Positions 1-55,277 of a DNA stretch of 64,000 nt are shown here, piece after piece (the first letter of the stretch is position 1; the number at the start of each line of letters is the position of its first letter). A model generated the notes under the pieces. It was not told where the DNA came from and ran no database searches. It was given only the letters and a program-made list of their open reading frames with translations. Source of the DNA: Escherichia phage UoN_LG358_1. Made by a program: the position numbers and the translations under genes. Where the stretch lies: the sequence record OK570374. One strand, 5' to 3'.

Positions 1-2317
<2,317 letters not shown>

Positions 2318-11699: not shown

Positions 11700-11707
11700 T
11701 ATAAATA
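11700..11707 (+). promoter_or_regulatory. late promoter box for gene 24
   Basis: TATAAATA 26 nt upstream of the ATG at 11733. Confidence 0.7.
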
Positions 11708-11732: not shown

Positions 11733-13016
11733 ATGGCAAAGATTAACGAATTACTGCGCGAGTCAACTACAACTTCTAGCAGCTCTTTAGCTCGTCCTAA
11801 TTTGGTTGCTTTGACCCGTGCTACCACTAAATTAATTTACAGCGATATTATCGCAGAACAACGTACCAATCAACCTGTAGCGGCTCTTTATGGAGTAAAA
11901 TATCTAACTCCAGATAATGAGTTTAGTTTTCAAACTGGTGCTACTTATGGCGGACAAATCAGTGAAAAAGACCGTGAAACTATTCCAGAATTAACTAGTA
12001 AAACTCAAACACTTGCGGTTGGTGATTATTTTAAATATCAAAATGTTGTGTATAAAGCTTTACAAGCTAATCCGTTAGCATCTACAAGCGCAACAGATTT
12101 ATCAGACGCACTGCAAGAAGGATTAATTTCTCTTACTTGCCGTTTAGTTCCAGACGCTGCTAATACTGAAAAATTTGAAGATACCGACGTTGAAATTAGT
12201 AGTGCTGTATTTGAAGTAAATAAATGGAATGCTCCTGTTAAAACTCGTAAATTGAAAACCTCGTTGACTGTCGAACTTGCGCAGGATATGGAGTCAAACG
12301 GGTTCGATTCTCCAGCATTTTTAGAAGATTTATTGGCTACAGTTATGGCTGATGAAATTAATAAAGATGTTCTTCAGTCACTGATTACGGTGTCTAAGCG
12401 GTACAAAGTTACAGGTGTTTCTGATAATGGTATTGTAGACTTGAGTTACGCAAATGCCCCGGAAGCTTCACGCAAACTGTATGAAATTGTGTGTGAAATG
12501 AATTCAGAAATTCAGAAAACAACTTCTTATTCGGGTACTTACGTAGTAGCTTCTTCTAGAGCAGCCGCATTGCTGGCAGGTTCAGGCTGGTTAAAACATC
12601 GTCCAGAAGATGATGAATGGTTGCCTTCTACCGCGTATGGATATCTGTTAAATGGGCTTCCTGTATTCTGCGATGTAAATAGTCCTCTGGATTATGTGAC
12701 GGTAGGCGTTAAAGAAAACTACGGTGGAAAAGAAGTAGTTGGTTCTATTTTTTACGCTCCATACACAGAAGGATTAGACCTAGATGACCCGGACCATATC
12801 GGTGCATATAAGGTAATTGTTGACCCAGATAGTTTGCAACCATCAATTTCATTGATGATACGTTATGCTTTGTCTGCTAACCCGTATACAGTAGCTAAAG
12901 ATGAGAAAGAAGCTCGCATCATAGATGCTACTGACATGGATAAAATGGCTGGACAAAGTGATATGTCATATTTGGTTGGGGTTAAACTGCCTAAAATAAT
13001 TTATGAGGCGCCTTAA
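11733..13016 (+). CDS. 24: capsid vertex protein
   Basis: 427 aa; N-terminus MAKINELLRESTTT.. matches remembered T4 gp24; TATAAATA at 11700..11707. Confidence 0.9.
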   Translation: MAKINELLRESTTTSSSSLARPNLVALTRATTKLIYSDIIAEQRTNQPVAALYGVKYLTPDNEFSFQTGATYGGQISEKDRETIPELTSKTQTLAVGDYFKYQNVVYKALQANPLASTSATDLSDALQEGLISLTCRLVPDAANTEKFEDTDVEISSAVFEVNKWNAPVKTRKLKTSLTVELAQDMESNGFDSPAFLEDLLATVMADEINKDVLQSLITVSKRYKVTGVSDNGIVDLSYANAPEASRKLYEIVCEMNSEIQKTTSYSGTYVVASSRAAALLAGSGWLKHRPEDDEWLPSTAYGYLLNGLPVFCDVNSPLDYVTVGVKENYGGKEVVGSIFYAPYTEGLDLDDPDHIGAYKVIVDPDSLQPSISLMIRYALSANPYTVAKDEKEARIIDATDMDKMAGQSDMSYLVGVKLPKIIYEAP

Positions 13017-14296
13017 TGCAAAAAATAGATAATTTAATTAGAGAATCTACTGTCTCATCGGCCAACTCGCTTGGCCGTCCTAATTTATTGTCATATACAA
13101 AAGCTACAAATAAGCGTATTTTCAAATCTCTCGTTGCTGAACAGAAAACTAATCAGCCGATTGCTGCGTTATATGGAATACGCGTTCTTAATCCAGTTGA
13201 TAAAATGACATATTTAGGCGGCGCTACTTATGCTGGTCAAATTGGTTTGTCTGAACGCGAATCACTACCTTTAGCTTCTACTCCATCCCAATCTTTTAAT
13301 AAAGGTGAGATGTTTTTATTTGAAGATGTTGTTTTTAAAGCGTTAGAAGATAATCCATTCGCTGGAACAGCTGAGACTGATATGAGAGAAGTTATTTCAG
13401 AAGCTATCGCTGCTGGACATATCAGAATGGTATCTGATGCCGCTAACACAAACAAGTTTGAAAATGGTCACCCAGAAATTGCCGAAGCTGGATTTCGTAT
13501 TGATAAATGGCAAACTGAAGTTAAATCCCGTAAATTGAAAACCTCAATAACTGTTGAGTTAGCACAGGATTTAGAGTCTAATGGTTTTGACGCTCCAAAT
13601 TTTATCGAAGATGTTTTAGCAGTACAAATGGCTGAAGAAATTAATAAAGATGTTCTTCAGTCATTGATTACAGTGTCCAGCCGGTTTAAAGTACAAGGTA
13701 TATCGGAAAAAGGTGTTTTAAATTTAACCGATCCTAAATACGATAATGCTCAAGACCGCGCGCGTACTCTTTATTATTATATGTGCGAAATGAATTCCGC
13801 AGTTCAGAGACAAACATCATTTTCTGGTACATACGCAGTAGCTTCATCTCGATGTGCCGCGATTTTAGCTGCATCCGGTTGGGTTGAAAAATCAGAAGAC
13901 CAAGATGAGTTAGCATATGGTGTATTAAAAAATGGTTTGCCACTCTATGCTGATGTAAACAGCCCATGTGATTACGTTATTGTCGGTGTAAATGCTGATT
14001 TAGGTGAAGGACAGACGGTTGCATCACTGTATTATGCTCCGTATGTTGAGGGGCTAGATGATGTTGATGAAGAAGGTGATACTTCTGTTGGCGAGTTCAA
14101 AGTAATTGTTGACCCAGATAGTTTACAGCCTACTATTGCTCTTTTAGCTCGGTATGCATTAACTGCTAATCCATATACAGTAGCTAAAGATGAGAAAGAG
14201 GCACGAGTTATTGATGGTGCTGACATGGATAAAATGGCTAATCAAAGCCAATTAAGTTCTTATCTTGGCGTTAAGTTACCACCGCTTGAGAAATAA
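13016..14296 (+). CDS. second gp24-like vertex protein paralog
   Basis: 426 aa; colinear similarity to the preceding ORF (LIRESTVSS..GRPNL, VKSRKLKTSITVELAQDLESNGFDAPNF, ANPYTVAKDEKEAR); TAATG start/stop overlap. Confidence 0.8.
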   Translation: MQKIDNLIRESTVSSANSLGRPNLLSYTKATNKRIFKSLVAEQKTNQPIAALYGIRVLNPVDKMTYLGGATYAGQIGLSERESLPLASTPSQSFNKGEMFLFEDVVFKALEDNPFAGTAETDMREVISEAIAAGHIRMVSDAANTNKFENGHPEIAEAGFRIDKWQTEVKSRKLKTSITVELAQDLESNGFDAPNFIEDVLAVQMAEEINKDVLQSLITVSSRFKVQGISEKGVLNLTDPKYDNAQDRARTLYYYMCEMNSAVQRQTSFSGTYAVASSRCAAILAASGWVEKSEDQDELAYGVLKNGLPLYADVNSPCDYVIVGVNADLGEGQTVASLYYAPYVEGLDDVDEEGDTSVGEFKVIVDPDSLQPTIALLARYALTANPYTVAKDEKEARVIDGADMDKMANQSQLSSYLGVKLPPLEK

Positions 14297-14317
14297 GAAA
14301 AAAGGGCCTTCGGGCCC
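14297..14317. terminator. bidirectional hairpin terminator between the second gene 24 copy and the minus-strand block
   Basis: GGGCC-ttcg-GGCCC with an A-run on the plus side (U-run for minus transcripts). Confidence 0.6.
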
Positions 14318-14881
14318 TTATAAACTAAATATATCAAACTTCGGAGCATACTGTTCTTGTAGCTCTTCGAAAACTTTCTTATCATTCAAATTTGTACAAG
14401 GTATTCCGTGTTGTCTTGCAATACGAGTAGCTATACGAGTTCCACCCTGTTCTTCCCCATTTCTTACTGGACACCAATAATAAACGCGGTCAACCGGTGA
14501 CATACAATCTTCTCCCAAAACTTGCATCGCATTTCGACAGAACAATGTCTTTATAATATCTCGTTCAGAATCCAGCCCTGGATAAGCTTGCTTAGCTTTG
14601 ACGTAACTCTTTATACGAGATTCATTACTTAAATCAGACCAGCAAACCACACCAATACCGGTGTGGCAATGATTAAACCCATCATAAGGAATAATCCTAA
14701 GCGAAAGATGTCTATCATATCTGCTCAACCAAGCTTCGTCTGAGCCTGGAGCTCCACCAGAATAAGAGAAATGACCAGCCTCCGAAAAGGCCAATCCCAT
14801 TAAACTCATTAAGTCAAGATACTTTCTTGGTGCTTCTCTTGACCCGATTAATGCTAATCTTAACTTACGATTTCTAGCCAT
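14318..14881 (-). CDS. DprA/Smf-like (SLOG-type) Rossmann-fold protein, function unknown
   Basis: 187 aa; [10 protein letters not shown] .. [11 protein letters not shown] resembles the DprA/SLOG glycine-rich nucleotide-binding pattern; start overlaps rnlB stop by 22 nt. Confidence 0.45.
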
Positions 14882-15867
14882 TTTTCTCTGATAGTATTAC
14901 TCACAACAGTCTGAAGTTCTCGTTTTACGAGGTCCGGATTATCAGCATGAACAATATCAACACCTTCTCGTTTAGCTTCAATAAAGATATCCTGTATTGT
15001 CAGACCCATAACCTTACCGAAGTCTTTAGCTTTAACTTCGCCAATATGACTAATCACGTTAGATACACGGTTCCACGTAGAGTATTCACAGAGGTTCGCC
15101 AGAACGGTCGAGTCGTTACTAGTTAATACAGCTTTAGGTTTAATTGGCTTATCAGATTTTTTCTTCTCAGTGAATCTGGAGTTCTTAGATTTAATTGCAA
15201 TGCGGGTGCCATTATTAAAGAAATCAGGATAAACTGGTTTTAGTACGTAACCTTCAGCAACATTATCATCTGTCACTAATGGGTCAAATACACACAAATT
15301 GACTTCTTTCAAATCATCTTTTGCTGCTTCGTTATAAGCTTTGATTACAGATGTAAAATTATTTGGTAATTGAATAAGTTCATCAAAAGAACCACATCCA
15401 ATAAATGGAGCCATTTTAAATCCGAATTCGTTACAGAACGAAGTCATCATCATATCGTCCATATAAAGAACATTACCATTTTGAGTATTTACTAGAATGT
15501 CAAATACATAAAAGTCTTTTTCACCATAATCAACTTCTTTCTGAATTCCTTGACCCGCGAACTCACCAAAAATTTGATAAGAACTTACTGAACCAAGTTC
15601 ATTCGCATTCATGCATCGTTGAATAGTTTTAATAGACTCGTCATAATTCTTCAATATAATTTCGTGGCCATAGAATGATTCACTAGGAAGAATGGGACCA
15701 CTGCGCTTGCACGCAGAAACTGAGTCTTTGGATACGATGATTGAGAAATTAGTGCCATGAATTTTTTCACGAGCTACCCACAGACCACCATCTTTACCTT
15801 CAAACCGAATTTTAGAAATAAATTTATTGTTGTAGTGGTTTTCAAGAGAGGAGTACTTCTTAAACAT
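14860..15867 (-). CDS. rnlB: RNA ligase 2
   Basis: 335 aa; N-terminus [13 protein letters not shown] and KIHGTN adenylylation motif match remembered T4 Rnl2. Confidence 0.9.
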
Positions 15868-15982
15868 TTTTTCACCATTATAAATAGATTAAATAGAGAA
15901 CTTCTATTCTTTTCCGGCAGAGTGTAATGGTTACTAGATATTATCCTTGAAACCATTATACACCATAAATTCTTAAAGCATT

Positions 15983-16228
15983 TTACCACGTAATCATAAT
16001 ATACGTGCCGGAAATTTGGCATTGGTTCCAGTATGCCGTAAATCCTTCATCTTTTAACCATGACATGATATTTCCTTTGAAATTAGTTTCTTTTGGGTAG
16101 AAAACCAGTTGAGTCTTCCCATTTTTGGCAGCATTATTAATTGATTCTTCAATTAGTTCTTTTTGCTTAACAAATCCTTCATTGTTATAAGAATCTGCTA
16201 AGTTACGGTATTTTTCTGATAATAACAT
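15983..16228 (-). CDS. hypothetical protein
   Basis: 81-aa ORF in the rnlB-hoc interval, same strand as neighbours. Confidence 0.45.
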   Translation of the reverse strand: MLLSEKYRNLADSYNNEGFVKQKELIEESINNAAKNGKTQLVFYPKETNFKGNIMSWLKDEGFTAYWNQCQISGTYIMITW

Positions 16229-16585
16229 TTAGACCTCGCTTGGAATAATACGAATATCGATGAAACTAAAATCTTTTGATTGTCGTAATTCAATCTGATT
16301 TTTATCACCAACTTCAATAACCACTATTTCATTTAATTCGATTTCAGCGATATTAAAAGCAAATCGGTTTTTAATTATGTTATAAAGTATCACAAGATAA
16401 TGTTCATTGTAAAACGAACTACTATCTCCAAAAGAATACGATAATTTTTTCATAAAATCTTTGATTGAACACCATTTGTTCACACCAAGCGATGCTGGAG
16501 CAAACAAATTTTCATACAGCATATAATCAATGATGTCAGTAACAACTAGTTCCGAGTCTATCAGCACTTGAGTTAAGTTTTTCAT
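16229..16585 (-). CDS. hypothetical protein
   Basis: 118-aa ORF; 4-nt overlap with the upstream ORF. Confidence 0.45.
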   Translation of the reverse strand: MKNLTQVLIDSELVVTDIIDYMLYENLFAPASLGVNKWCSIKDFMKKLSYSFGDSSSFYNEHYLVILYNIIKNRFAFNIAEIELNEIVVIEVGDKNQIELRQSKDFSFIDIRIIPSEV

Positions 16586-16868: not shown

Positions 16869-16889
16869 CAAAAAGGGCCGCAAGGGCCC
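16869..16889 (-). terminator. terminator downstream of hoc
   Basis: GGGCC-gcaag-GGCCC; minus-strand U-run from the plus A-run. Confidence 0.6.
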
Positions 16890-16895
16890 TTCATG

Positions 16896-18730: not shown

Positions 18731-20233
18731 ATGTCAGACATCCAAGTAAATTTTCATGATTTTAGTCATGTTCGTATCGATTGCGAAGAATCGATATTTC
18801 ACGAATTAAGAGACTATTTTAGTTTTGAAGCAGACGGATATAAATTTAATCCACGCTATCGCTATGGTAACTGGGATGGCAGAATTCGTCTTTTAGATTA
18901 CAATCGTCTTTTACCTTTCGGTTTAGTTGGTCAAATTAAAAAGTTTTGTGATAACTTCGGATACAAATTTTGGATTGACCCTAAGATTTTTGAAAAAGAA
19001 GACTTGTCCCGTAAGGACTTTGATGAATGGTTAGGGAAGCTCCAGATATACTCTGGGAACACCAAAATTGAACCACATTGGTATCAAAAGGATGCTGTAT
19101 ACGAAGGGATAGTGAACCGCAGGCGTATTCTAAATTTACCCACCTCCGCCGGTAAATCTCTAATTCAGTGTCTGTTAGCCCGGTACTATATAGAAAATTA
19201 CGAAGGTAAAATTCTCATTATCGTCCCGACTACAGCCCTTGTTGACCAGATGCAAAACGATTTTTGTGATTATCGTTTATTCAGTAAACAACATATACTC
19301 GGTATCCGTTCAGGAACAAAACGTGATTCCGACGCTATAATTTATGTGGCAACTTGGCAGACTGCAATAAAGCAGCCAAAAGAGTGGTTCAATCAGTTTG
19401 GTTTGATGATGAATGACGAGTGCCATTTATCTACGGGAAAATCGATAGCTTCTATCGTATCAGGTCTTAATAATTGCATGTTCAAATTCGGTCTTTCTGG
19501 TTCTCTGAAAGATGGTAAAGCTAATATCATGCAGTATGTTGGAATGTTCGGTGAAATTTTTAAACCAGTTTCAACTGCTAAATTAATGGAAGACGGTCAA
19601 GTAACAGAGCTTAAAATTAATTCTATCTTCTTGCGTTACCCAGATGAAGCTACAGTTAAGATGAAAGGTAAAACATATCAAGAAGAAGTTAAAGCTGTCA
19701 CTGGATTTAAAAGAAGAAATAAATGGGTAGCGGCTCTAGCCAAACGATTAGCTGATAAAGGCGAAAATGCTTTTGTTATGTTTAAATTTACTGCTCACGG
19801 TAAAGAGCTTTATCAAATGATTAAAGACCTTGGACATGAAAAAGTTTATTATGTTTCAGGCGAAGTGTCAACAGAAACTCGTAATGCTCTCAAAGAAATG
19901 GCGGAAAACGGTAAAGGAATTATTATTGTAGCTTCTTACGGAGTATTCTCTACCGGTATTTCTGTTAAGAACCTTCATCACGTTATTTTTGCTCATGGTG
20001 TAAAATCTAAAATTACTGTATTGCAATCAATTGGCCGAGTTCTACGTAAGCATGCGTCAAAAAGCTTAGCTACTGTTTGGGATTTAATTGACGATTTAGG
20101 TGTTAAACCGAAGTCAGCCAACACAAAGAAAAAATATGTTCATATTAATTATTTGCTGAAGCATGGTTTAGAGCGTATTCAACGATATGCTGATGAAAAA
20201 TTCAATTACGCTATGAAAACTATCGATCTTTGA
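18731..20233 (+). CDS. uvsW: UvsW DNA/RNA helicase
   Basis: 500 aa; Walker A PTSAGKS, DECH box; late promoter upstream. Confidence 0.9.
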   Translation: MSDIQVNFHDFSHVRIDCEESIFHELRDYFSFEADGYKFNPRYRYGNWDGRIRLLDYNRLLPFGLVGQIKKFCDNFGYKFWIDPKIFEKEDLSRKDFDEWLGKLQIYSGNTKIEPHWYQKDAVYEGIVNRRRILNLPTSAGKSLIQCLLARYYIENYEGKILIIVPTTALVDQMQNDFCDYRLFSKQHILGIRSGTKRDSDAIIYVATWQTAIKQPKEWFNQFGLMMNDECHLSTGKSIASIVSGLNNCMFKFGLSGSLKDGKANIMQYVGMFGEIFKPVSTAKLMEDGQVTELKINSIFLRYPDEATVKMKGKTYQEEVKAVTGFKRRNKWVAALAKRLADKGENAFVMFKFTAHGKELYQMIKDLGHEKVYYVSGEVSTETRNALKEMAENGKGIIIVASYGVFSTGISVKNLHHVIFAHGVKSKITVLQSIGRVLRKHASKSLATVWDLIDDLGVKPKSANTKKKYVHINYLLKHGLERIQRYADEKFNYAMKTIDL

Positions 20234-51378: not shown

Positions 51379-51636
51379 TTAATTGATATCACTCATATAC
51401 ATTTCGATATCTTCATATTCGCAAATTTCCAAATACTCACGGATATCTTCAACTTCACCAATGATTTCAACTAAAGGCCATCCGCCAGCGGGTCCACGTT
51501 CTGCTATAACGTTAAACTCCAATTTACCAGGAAGAATTTCCATGAACCGAGTGCAATCATCAAATTCTAAATCAATAATCATTCCGCCTTCGTCTTTGAT
51601 AATTTCACATACTAAGTCAAGTTCTAAACGTGCCAT
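51379..51636 (-). CDS. hypothetical acidic protein (MARLELD paralog A)
   Basis: Start at second ATG (AAGGAA RBS); MARLELDLV..GGWP; own early promoter. Confidence 0.45.
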   Translation of the reverse strand: MARLELDLVCEIIKDEGGMIIDLEFDDCTRFMEILPGKLEFNVIAERGPAGGWPLVEIIGEVEDIREYLEICEYEDIEMYMSDIN

Positions 51637-51667
51637 GATATTTTCCTTCATTTGTTTTGATAAGGTA

Positions 51668-51840: not shown

Positions 51841-52101
51841 TTATTGTTCCATAAATTCATCTAGCAACCAATCAATGTCTTCCCATTGATTATCTTCAAG
51901 CCATTTGCGGATATTTTTTTCAGACCCGCGAAGATAAATCACTGGCCAGCCGCCGCCGGTGCCTTCTTCGATTATAAGGTCAAAATCAAGACCATGGTCA
52001 ACATCATAAAAACGGCTTCCATCCTCAAAAATTAAATCAGTTGCAATTCCACGCTCATTGCGGTGAACTTCAGCTACAATATCAAGTTCTAAACGTGCCA
52101 T
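51841..52101 (-). CDS. hypothetical acidic protein (MARLELD paralog B)
   Basis: Start at second ATG (GAGGAA RBS); MARLELDIV..GGWP; own early promoter. Confidence 0.45.
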   Translation of the reverse strand: MARLELDIVAEVHRNERGIATDLIFEDGSRFYDVDHGLDFDLIIEEGTGGGWPVIYLRGSEKNIRKWLEDNQWEDIDWLLDEFMEQ

Positions 52102-52132
52102 TTTCAATTTCCTCATTTGTTTTGATGAGATA

Positions 52133-54102: not shown

Positions 54103-54358
54103 CTACCTTATCTTTTTCTTCTTCAAATTGTTCACGAGTGTCTTTATGATACATCGCCAGCAGTTGGTTAAAAGCTTTTGAATCAACACCGAGGTCGTCT
54201 TTGGCGGATGTTTTCAAATCAGCAATTAGTACTCGATAACCGGAAATTTTCAGAAGATGGTCAGAAGCTTCTTTAATTTTCTTACGGAGGTCTTCACCAT
54301 GAATAGCTTCATCAAATTCTACAGCAACTTTCTTTTCTTTGGCCATTTTAAAACTCAT
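54071..54358 (-). CDS. dsbA: dsDNA-binding protein
   Basis: 95 aa between 33 and rnh; assigned by position and size. Confidence 0.6.
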   Translation of the reverse strand: MSFKMAKEKKVAVEFDEAIHGEDLRKKIKEASDHLLKISGYRVLIADLKTSAKDDLGVDSKAFNQLLAMYHKDTREQFEEEKDKVVEIYDSIFTK

Positions 54359-55277
54359 TAATATGATTAGTTAATTTAGAAAGACCCGACTTCACAAAGT
54401 AAGAATAAATCTTACCGCGAGGAGGTGTTTTGTATAATTCATAATATTCTATAATCGGTTTAGCAATTTCTTCTGGAATATAACTAAAATCGATAAGAAC
54501 TCTATTTTCAAGATAACGATTATATTCGGCTTCTGTTAAAAGCGATTTCATTCCTTCTGGACCAGCATCTAAGCACTGCTCGAGAAGCTTAGTTGAAAAT
54601 GAAGGAGTTCGTTCACCATCAATTTTAGTGTACCAATAATCAGAACGCACTTTAACAGACGCGACGTTATCTTTGCGATCGCCTTTTAATACTTTAGTTA
54701 AACATTCAAGTTCAGCGTCCCCGGTTTTGCATACAACGAATTTCTTCTGCATCGGTGACCATTGTTTAACATTAGGATATCTGTGAAGCTGTTTAAAGTC
54801 GCCATCAGAAGAAACAATCATAATTTTGTGTCCCTTCAAAGAAAGATGAGGAACAAGAATACCGATATGGTCATCCGCTTCATATTTGTCAATATTCATA
54901 ATAGTGTAAGGCATATATTTTTGAAATTCATCGATAATTGTGCGAATTCCAGTAAAATATCCTTCCCAATCCCATAATGACTCTTCCCGGCCTTGTTTAC
55001 GGTTCTTTTTATAATAATACGCAATATCGCGTCGCCAATAACCAGACTTAGCGTTATCAGTACAAATTACAACTTTTTCATAACCTTGTTTGCGAAATTG
55101 TAAAACATTCTTTTTAAGAGTGCTTAGAACCAGATGCCGCATCATTGCGGGTTGAATTTTCTCTTTATCAGAGAATGTATTCAGCGCTGCAGCCAAAGCA
55201 ATTTGGGATAAATCCACTAACACAACACCTTCTTTCGTTTGGTCTTCTTCGCCAAACAGACAATCTAGATTTGACAT
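54348..55277 (-). CDS. rnh: RNase H / flap 5'-3' exonuclease
   Basis: 309 aa (T4 RNase H 305); position before gene 34. Confidence 0.85.
   Translation of the reverse strand: MSNLDCLFGEEDQTKEGVVLVDLSQIALAAALNTFSDKEKIQPAMMRHLVLSTLKKNVLQFRKQGYEKVVICTDNAKSGYWRRDIAYYYKKNRKQGREESLWDWEGYFTGIRTIIDEFQKYMPYTIMNIDKYEADDHIGILVPHLSLKGHKIMIVSSDGDFKQLHRYPNVKQWSPMQKKFVVCKTGDAELECLTKVLKGDRKDNVASVKVRSDYWYTKIDGERTPSFSTKLLEQCLDAGPEGMKSLLTEAEYNRYLENRVLIDFSYIPEEIAKPIIEYYELYKTPPRGKIYSYFVKSGLSKLTNHINEF

Follow-up and report, generated by a model that had tools for sequence, protein, structure and literature searches.

Does the small DprA-like protein encoded next to an RNA ligase gene in a T4-like phage serve RNA repair, or does it act on DNA or on ADP-ribose derivatives? 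We addressed this question by computational analysis of a 64,000-nucleotide stretch of Escherichia phage UoN_LG358_1 (OK570374), in the following called the window.

A DprA-like gene overlaps the gene for RNA ligase 2

The locus comprises two genes on the minus strand that share their ends:

14318..14881 (-): DprA-like SLOG-fold protein, 187 aa, ATG start, the equivalent of STP4a_166
14860..15867 (-): rnlB, RNA ligase 2, 335 aa (Pfam RNA_ligase 2.4e-22, T4_Rnl2_C 2.9e-15)
14860..14881 (-): overlap of rnlB stop and SLOG start, 22 nt in two reading frames, likely translational coupling

The rnlB product contains both the RNA_ligase nucleotidyltransferase and the T4_Rnl2_C domain (Pfam), matches PHROG 548 with a profile E-value of 8.5e-123 and is 58% identical to T4 RnlB. 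The first-pass annotation had described the smaller ORF as 187 aa long with two nucleotide-binding motifs and a start overlapping the rnlB stop by 22 nt. All of this was found, i.e., the motifs occupy residues 9–18 and 41–51 with 22 residues between them, and bases 14860–14881 are shared. It had moreover stated that T4 has no such gene beside rnlB, and rightly so: only 29 nt separate gene 24 from rnlB in T4, hence there is no SLOG gene at the T4 site.

Over bases 14000–16300, identity reaches 100% with Salmonella phage STP4-a and 99.8% with S16 (Gelderlandvirus, Straboviridae). RefSeq lists the ORF in the STP4-a genome as STP4a_166, a "DprA-like DNA recombination-mediator protein", adjoining an "RNA ligase". 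The gene is therefore no discovery, as it is already catalogued by its RefSeq name, as PHROG 768 and within a viral SLOG class surveyed in PMC9503650. Between 10 and 30 kb, the window aligns to STP4-a in four pieces with 98.6% identity. At 18731..20233 (+), it has one intact 500-aa ORF, where the STP4-a record annotates a homing endonuclease and, after it, several helicase fragments. We hence conclude that the window comes from a close relative of STP4-a, which is either a different isolate or one without that insertion. Beside the locus, two gene-24 (head vertex) paralogues with 55% identity lie in tandem at 11733..13016 and 13016..14296 (+); T4 has a single gene 24.

Predicted signals around the two genes delimit a putative transcription unit:

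14302..14319 (-): intrinsic-terminator-like hairpin plus T-run, starting within the SLOG stop codon (scan; -11.7 kcal/mol, z -2.1)
15955..15980 (-): site upstream of rnlB that resembles T4 middle promoters (MotA box TGCTTTA, followed after 13 nt by TATAAT)
16892..16872: second terminator, after hoc

The stretch between both terminators contains three small ORFs, rnlB and the SLOG gene, in this order and in an orientation opposite to that of late genes 23 and 24. The promoter-like site follows the MotA-type middle-promoter consensus, and its pattern occurs a single time in the window, with 0.07 matches expected. From these sequence features we infer that the leftward rnlB–SLOG unit is probably expressed early or middle in infection. 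The T4 late-promoter core TATAAATA is present in 17 copies in the window, against 8 expected and fewer than 17 in each of 100 shuffles; one copy, at 11700, shortly precedes the first gene-24 paralogue.

The protein is a single-domain member of the SLOG superfamily

In a profile search, residues 6–180 of the protein aligned to positions 3–181 of the 191 positions of PHROG 768 (DprA-like) at E 3.3e-55. A tblastn search of 50,697 phage records gave homologues in 1227 of them, with Klebsiella (290), Pseudomonas (232), Escherichia (128) and Vibrio (78) as the commonest host names. Moreover, searching 1.84 billion cluster representatives (50% identity clusters) with a profile gave 4596 proteins at E<=1e-3, mostly standalone and of 160–200 aa. 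Because of the PHROG match, the 1227 records, the 4596 clusters and an AlphaFold2 model with a pLDDT of 93.7, we consider the ORF to be a real gene.

The call of a DprA/SLOG fold, made in the first-pass annotation from the motif pattern, is upheld by the AlphaFold2 model, the best Foldseek match and PHROG 768. The model, calculated from 18 homologues with a pTM of 0.88, displays the Rossmannoid three-layer α/β fold common to LOG, DprA, MoCo-carrier, YpsA and ThsA-SLOG proteins; the last ~9 residues are less confident (tail pLDDT 68) and include a short helix at 184–186. Foldseek ranked HpDprA first (E 1.8e-4). LOG structures ranked lower than DprA. On this basis, membership of the SLOG superfamily is secure, and DprA is the nearest clade by a narrow margin.

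Sequence profiles are in part below threshold. The window protein reached 12.6 bits against Pfam DNA_processg_A (PF02481; threshold 29.6; E 0.075), and 79 of 123 family representatives matched this model at E<=0.01 (best 3.8e-7). A further Pfam model, SLOG cluster 4, was matched by 14 of the 123; YpsA and YAcAr were matched by none, and we dropped membership of these two groups. With a profile built from the 123 representatives, a PDB search gave DprA chains (E 5.8e-5), the alignment being confined to the first ~50 residues. In hhalign, the family and E. coli Smf matched over no more than 50 N-terminal residues with a probability of 23%, and single-sequence phmmer against the PDB returned noise only. 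The DprA equivalence past the first 50 residues is taken from the structure match and from alignment by eye, not from HMMs.

DprA pocket residues are conserved

Four segments correspond to nucleic-acid-binding or loop regions of DprA and SLOG proteins:

14837..14845 (-): G13-S14-R15, DprA motif 1 (G-S/T/A-R), aligned to DprA GTR/GSR by hmmsearch
14738..14761 (-): S41-G-G-A-P-G-S-D48, glycine-rich SLOG/DprA loop (SGGAxGxD), aligned to DprA SGgAxGiD
14531..14545 (-): L113-F-C-R116-N117, DprA motif 2 (F/L/Y-x-x-R-N/D), assigned by fold match and visual alignment
14438..14446 (-): G146-G147-T148 loop, 100% conserved among 123 representatives, followed by A151

Both DprA motifs were defined with the HpDprA–ssDNA structure and mutants, their equivalents being G50–R52 and F140–N144 (Wang et al., PMC3950713). 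The exchange R52E weakened ssDNA binding 315-fold and R143E 173-fold, F140E was also studied, and the arginine of the motif 1 loop gates the base pocket (PMC3950713). Across the 123 family representatives, G13, S14 and R15 are kept in 100, 93 and 98%, S41, G42, A44, G46 and D48 in 98, 100, 97, 99 and 100%, and L113, R116 and N117 in 86, 100 and 96%, respectively.

LOG enzymes carry a PGGxGTxxE motif with a catalytic glutamate. Here the glutamate position is A151, and alanine occupies it in 95% of the family. A LOG-type N-glycosidase is therefore unlikely, and we rejected a LOG-type enzyme as candidate.

The gene pair recurs across phages, and each gene also occurs alone

We analyzed how far the SLOG gene is linked to rnlB. 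The rnlB gene lies immediately upstream of the SLOG gene on the same strand in 22 of 26 IMG/VR loci, and the pairing holds down to identities of 31–36% for the SLOG protein and 41–43% for RnlB (RB16/RB43/KP15-type phages). The first-pass annotation had proposed probable co-expression with rnlB from the overlap; among 27 loci with both genes, 18 have stop/start overlaps of 22, 11, 4 or 1 nt, in agreement with this proposal. Insertions of 135–1030 nt separate the genes in five of the 27, and PS2/Muldoon-type phages have three small genes in between. Phages of the RB16/KP15 lineage keep the pair intact though gene 24 is no longer a neighbor.

The overlapping pair is thus found in several T4-like genera, and each gene is also found on its own. 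Krischvirus has the SLOG gene beside gene 24 but no rnlB. In all, 1421 records contain RnlB, led by Escherichia with 556, and Pseudomonas, the host in 232 records with SLOG, is outside the ten commonest host names of RnlB. RnlB of T4, which has no SLOG gene, is with 58% identity as close to the window RnlB as is RnlB of SLOG-bearing phages, and a clamp-type tail on T4 RnlB that would make up for the missing SLOG protein was not found. As either gene is found without the other, a functional tie of the SLOG protein to RNA repair is speculative. In the literature searched, we found no link of RnlB to phage DprA-like proteins.

One fused RnlB–SLOG protein (P0027) was rejected as a Rosetta-stone case, as it stems from a 100-kb assembly with many truncated genes. 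This genome, OR941409.1 (Klebsiella phage vB_Kpn_AM.K1, 100 kb, locus L046), has gp23 in two pieces, a short portal and the fused RnlB–SLOG, and looks deletion-ridden or misassembled.

The pairing could indicate a dedicated adaptor that binds Rnl2 and delivers it to its substrate via single-strand ends or a clamp tether, in a manner resembling T4 DNA ligase, which is tethered by a loop of its own. Adjacency and start/stop overlap across genera, with differing overlap geometries, and the joint movement of the pair in the RB16/KP15 lineage agree with such a role, and T4 DNA ligase binds the sliding clamp gp45 through an LDFLF loop (PMC6212786) whereas RnlB is without the motif. Such an adaptor is nevertheless very unlikely in our view: many phages have RnlB without SLOG or SLOG without RnlB, three small genes part the pair in PS2/Muldoon-type phages, the single fusion comes from a deletion-riddled assembly and is not genuine, and RnlB neither diverges more nor changes its motifs where SLOG is present.

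SLOG fusions and neighbors point to ADP-ribose and nucleic acids

Among the best 150 of the 4596 representatives, four are fused to a NADAR domain of the phage gp30.3 type and one further protein to an SF1 helicase. Two of the four, P0031 (1488 aa) and P0032 (1475 aa), are metagenomic giant polyvalent proteins with three SLOG-type domains (the ORF's family, YAcAr and SLOG cluster 4) and a C-terminal NADAR domain. DarG-like Macro fusions of the SLOG family were also found, and one NADAR–SLOG gene comes after Macro and DUF4326 genes. The contexts of P0022, P0041 and P0074 were short contigs with little information.

Neighboring genes are of a related kind. Just upstream of the SLOG gene, Pakpunavirus PAK_P4 (L006 1-3512) and Otagovirus phiPsa374 (L043 1-4540) encode a Prs-like pyrophosphokinase, a NamPT-like protein and a Macro protein (PHROG 335), a cluster that presumably resembles a phage NAD+ reconstitution pathway. 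In a KP15-like phage, NamPT is encoded 1.3 kb downstream of SLOG. The 64-kb window contains no Macro, NADAR or second SLOG gene.

Viral SLOG domains have been predicted to sense or degrade ADP-ribose derivatives (Iyer et al. 2022, PMC9503650). The ORF product might accordingly bind or hydrolyze a soluble NAD+ or ADP-ribose derivative, e.g., a cADPR-type signal or a by-product of RNA repair, and the two genes would then be neighbors because both belong to an early counter-defence region. We consider this somewhat unlikely. It is the role proposed for viral SLOGs in that survey on the strength of Macro/NADAR fusions, and the same fusions in the present family, the Macro, DUF4326 and NADAR–SLOG neighborhood and the Prs-like, NamPT and Macro genes near SLOG in PAK_P4 and phiPsa374, as well as NamPT in a KP15-like phage, fit it. 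Against it, the LOG catalytic glutamate position is alanine, the residues kept are those with which DprA binds ssDNA, and DprA is closest by both sequence and fold. Moreover, the SF1-helicase fusion and the clamp-like tail described below point to nucleic acid, and the window is devoid of Macro, NADAR and a second SLOG. Finally, DNA bases that carry ADP-ribose have meanwhile been established as substrates of NADAR and DarG-type Macro domains: AdfN/gp30.3 NADAR reverses DNA ADP-ribosylation by DarT1 (PMC11257639), and DarG Macro domains strip ADP-ribose from DNA bases and counter DarT. An ssDNA-binding role is therefore natural for a DprA-like domain fused to them. Phage DprA/Smf has also been proposed as an extra ssDNA-binding protein (Iyer et al. 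2021, PMC7824862). Judged by the partners of the SLOG domain and by its C-terminal tail, a DNA or ADP-ribose context is no less indicated than an RNA one.

The C-terminal tail resembles sliding-clamp-binding peptides

In the T4-like subfamily only, the SLOG protein has a conserved hydrophobic-acidic end after a variable linker:

14321..14344 (-): C-terminal tail P180-KFDIFSL187, similar to peptides that bind the gp45 sliding clamp

LDFLF is the gp45-interaction motif of T4, and the tails of gp43, gp55 and gp33 are interchangeable (PMC6212786, PMC2988020). We compared these with the SLOG tails:

SLOG, window and Merlin: PKFDIFSL
SLOG, Klebsiella/Enterobacter phages: PTFDIFAL
SLOG, PS2: PSLDHLFGNS
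SLOG, RB16/KP15 group: PPTLDFLW(C)
SLOG, metagenomic relatives: PSLDFLF, SLEDLFG
T4: gp43 ...KASLDFLFG; gp55 ...SPSLDFLYEAND
STP4-a and window: gp43 ...KASLEDMFDF; gp55 ...SPNLDFLYEAED; gp33 ...KTNTLEFLL
RB16: gp43 ...RASLNTLFGDDW; gp55 ...ESPTLEMFL; gp33 ...TQTLDDFM
PS2: gp43 ...KASLLDLFDI; gp55 ...QATLESFYEADT

A gp55 tail with ...SLDFLYEAND is also among the compared gp45-binding tails. A loose hydrophobic-acidic-hydrophobic pattern was found in 14 of 16 distinct T4-like SLOG tails and in none of five non-T4-like tails; among the representatives, 10 of the closest 25 have it vs 6 of the other 98; its background is 8 of 88 window ORFs (9%). The FDIF variant of the window is less LDFLF-like than the tails of its relatives. 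In a further locus (L040), the SLOG tail KFDIFSL is identical to that of the window, though the proteins are just 34% identical. There, a 360-aa PHROG 2319 protein at 45..1127 (+), with no Pfam or PDB match, overlaps the SLOG start; it was rejected as a ligase, being not recognizable as one.

By its sequence, the SLOG tail thus resembles a gp45-binding peptide. In the literature searched, no paper ties the sliding clamp to a phage DprA-like protein, and relative to this literature the clamp-like tail is a new detail. If the tail binds gp45, the SLOG protein would sit on DNA at clamp-loaded junctions.

Such a position at forks would also suit a true recombination mediator, in keeping with the RefSeq name, which would load UvsX or the RecA of the host on ssDNA as DprA does in cells, with the adjacency to rnlB being inherited gene order. 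The DprA fold and ssDNA motifs are compatible with a mediator, as is the independent loss of rnlB and SLOG; ShosA, a DprA-like protein, binds ssDNA and RecA (PMC12961424), and the role as an extra ssDNA-binding protein proposed for phage DprA/Smf (PMC7824862) goes in the same direction. But UvsY is already the UvsX mediator in T4-like phages (T4 annotation; a UvsY Pfam match in a related locus), the ORF product is without the SAM or C-terminal domains of most DprA proteins, and Macro/NADAR fusions are unexpected for a recombinase loader, so that we regard a mediator as distinctly unlikely.

Similar peptides occur elsewhere in the window. A homologue of RNase H (54348..55277 (-), 309 aa) has the N-terminus MSNLDCLFGEE, which resembles the gp45-binding LDFLF; RNase H of RB16 begins MSSFASMFNLNSLM. 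Downstream of gene 32, two paralogous small ORFs of 90 and 91 aa (51379..51651 and 51841..52116 (-)) both contain MARLELD..., and the 91-aa paralogue has the acidic-hydrophobic end EDIDWLLDEFMEQ.

A tentative role as a reader of single-stranded bases

We tentatively favor a non-catalytic, DprA-type reader of a single-stranded nucleic-acid base that serves repair or counter-defence enzymes, is co-translated with Rnl2 and is possibly tethered to the clamp, a reading to which we would give a little less than an even chance. According to this proposal, the ORF product would be a minimal single-domain DprA-type SLOG member, most likely with no cleavage activity of its own, made together with RNA ligase 2 from one early or middle leftward mRNA via the overlapping stop and start codons. 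It would bind one nucleotide of an exposed single strand, either DNA or RNA in a hybrid, and seat the base in a pocket of G13-S14-R15, the SGGAxGxD loop, R116-N117 and G146-G147-T148, comparable to H. pylori DprA on ssDNA. The flexible PKFDIFSL tail would probably dock on gp45 and bring the protein to primer–template junctions and nicks of phage DNA, and damaged or single-stranded nucleic acid may then be handed to a partner enzyme. In other phages, the SLOG domain is joined to an AdfN-type NADAR, to a DarG-like Macro, i.e., to domains for removal of ADP-ribose from bases, or to an SF1 helicase; nucleic-acid repair and counter-defence would be the common theme.

The HpDprA match, the DprA motifs, the coupling to rnlB, the terminator and promoter, the fusions and the tail count for the base reader. 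Counting against it are the sub-threshold Pfam match, the HMM alignment over ~50 residues, the chance rate of the tail motif and the independence of rnlB and SLOG. Furthermore, Macro/NADAR partners would suit soluble ADP-ribose derivatives equally well (PMC9503650), and RnlB of T4 is neither closer nor farther and has no tail of its own.

A more specific and improbable version of the base reader would make the SLOG protein of T4-like phages a sliding-clamp client that forms a fork-associated repair or counter-defence module with Rnl2. The tail would bind gp45 while the pocket reads a base in the single strand beside the clamp. The module might seal nicks with RNA 3' ends in RNA–DNA junctions, or handle strands that were damaged or ADP-ribosylated by host defences. 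If true, the clamp-client reading would place T4-type RNA ligase 2 in a physiological context, to our knowledge for the first time, and the SLOG domain would serve to target the NADAR and Macro enzymes fused to it. The value of the present analysis is that of a lead: gene coupling, kept DprA pocket residues, fusions to DNA de-ADP-ribosylating enzymes and a clamp-like tail suggest specific experiments from which a function of both proteins might emerge.

Comparison with known systems

Compared with the T4 rnlB locus (24, rnlB, 24.2, 24.3, hoc, inh), gene order and orientation in the window are alike, with the difference that the window has a SLOG gene and T4 has none.

The ORF is 16–19% identical to the Rossmann-fold domain of DprA/Smf (H. 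pylori DprA 4LJK/4LJR; R. palustris 3MAJ). In contrast to DprA/Smf, it is a single domain of 187 aa without SAM and without DML1/winged-helix domains; moreover, the SLOG family has an insert of its own at about residues 65–105, with PW.GF and HP.W in the consensus, and carries invariant Q120 and N164. To the DprA-like antitoxins ShosA/PsyrA, the sequence match is marginal (PADLOC PsyrA E 0.011). These are bacterial and larger, have a SAM domain and a PRTase toxin as partner, and are unlike the phage ORF in these respects.

Like the gp45-binding tails of gp43, gp55 and gp33, the SLOG tail is a hydrophobic-acidic peptide at the extreme C-terminus after a variable linker. The likeness to gp45-binding peptides is at motif level only, and FDIFSL is identical to no validated peptide.

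PMC9503650 describes viral SLOGs of an NAD+/ADP-ribose network which, like the present family, are phage-encoded, mostly standalone and partnered with Macro, NADAR, DUF4326 and SF1 helicase domains. Most viral SLOGs are placed there in a YpsA-like clade, whereas the window family is nearest to DprA with no YpsA or YAcAr match. The survey also predicts action on soluble ADP-ribose derivatives, and its section on RNA repair makes no mention of the rnlB coupling. By its fusions and neighborhoods, the family of the window protein fits the viral SLOG class of Iyer et al. 2022 (PMC9503650).
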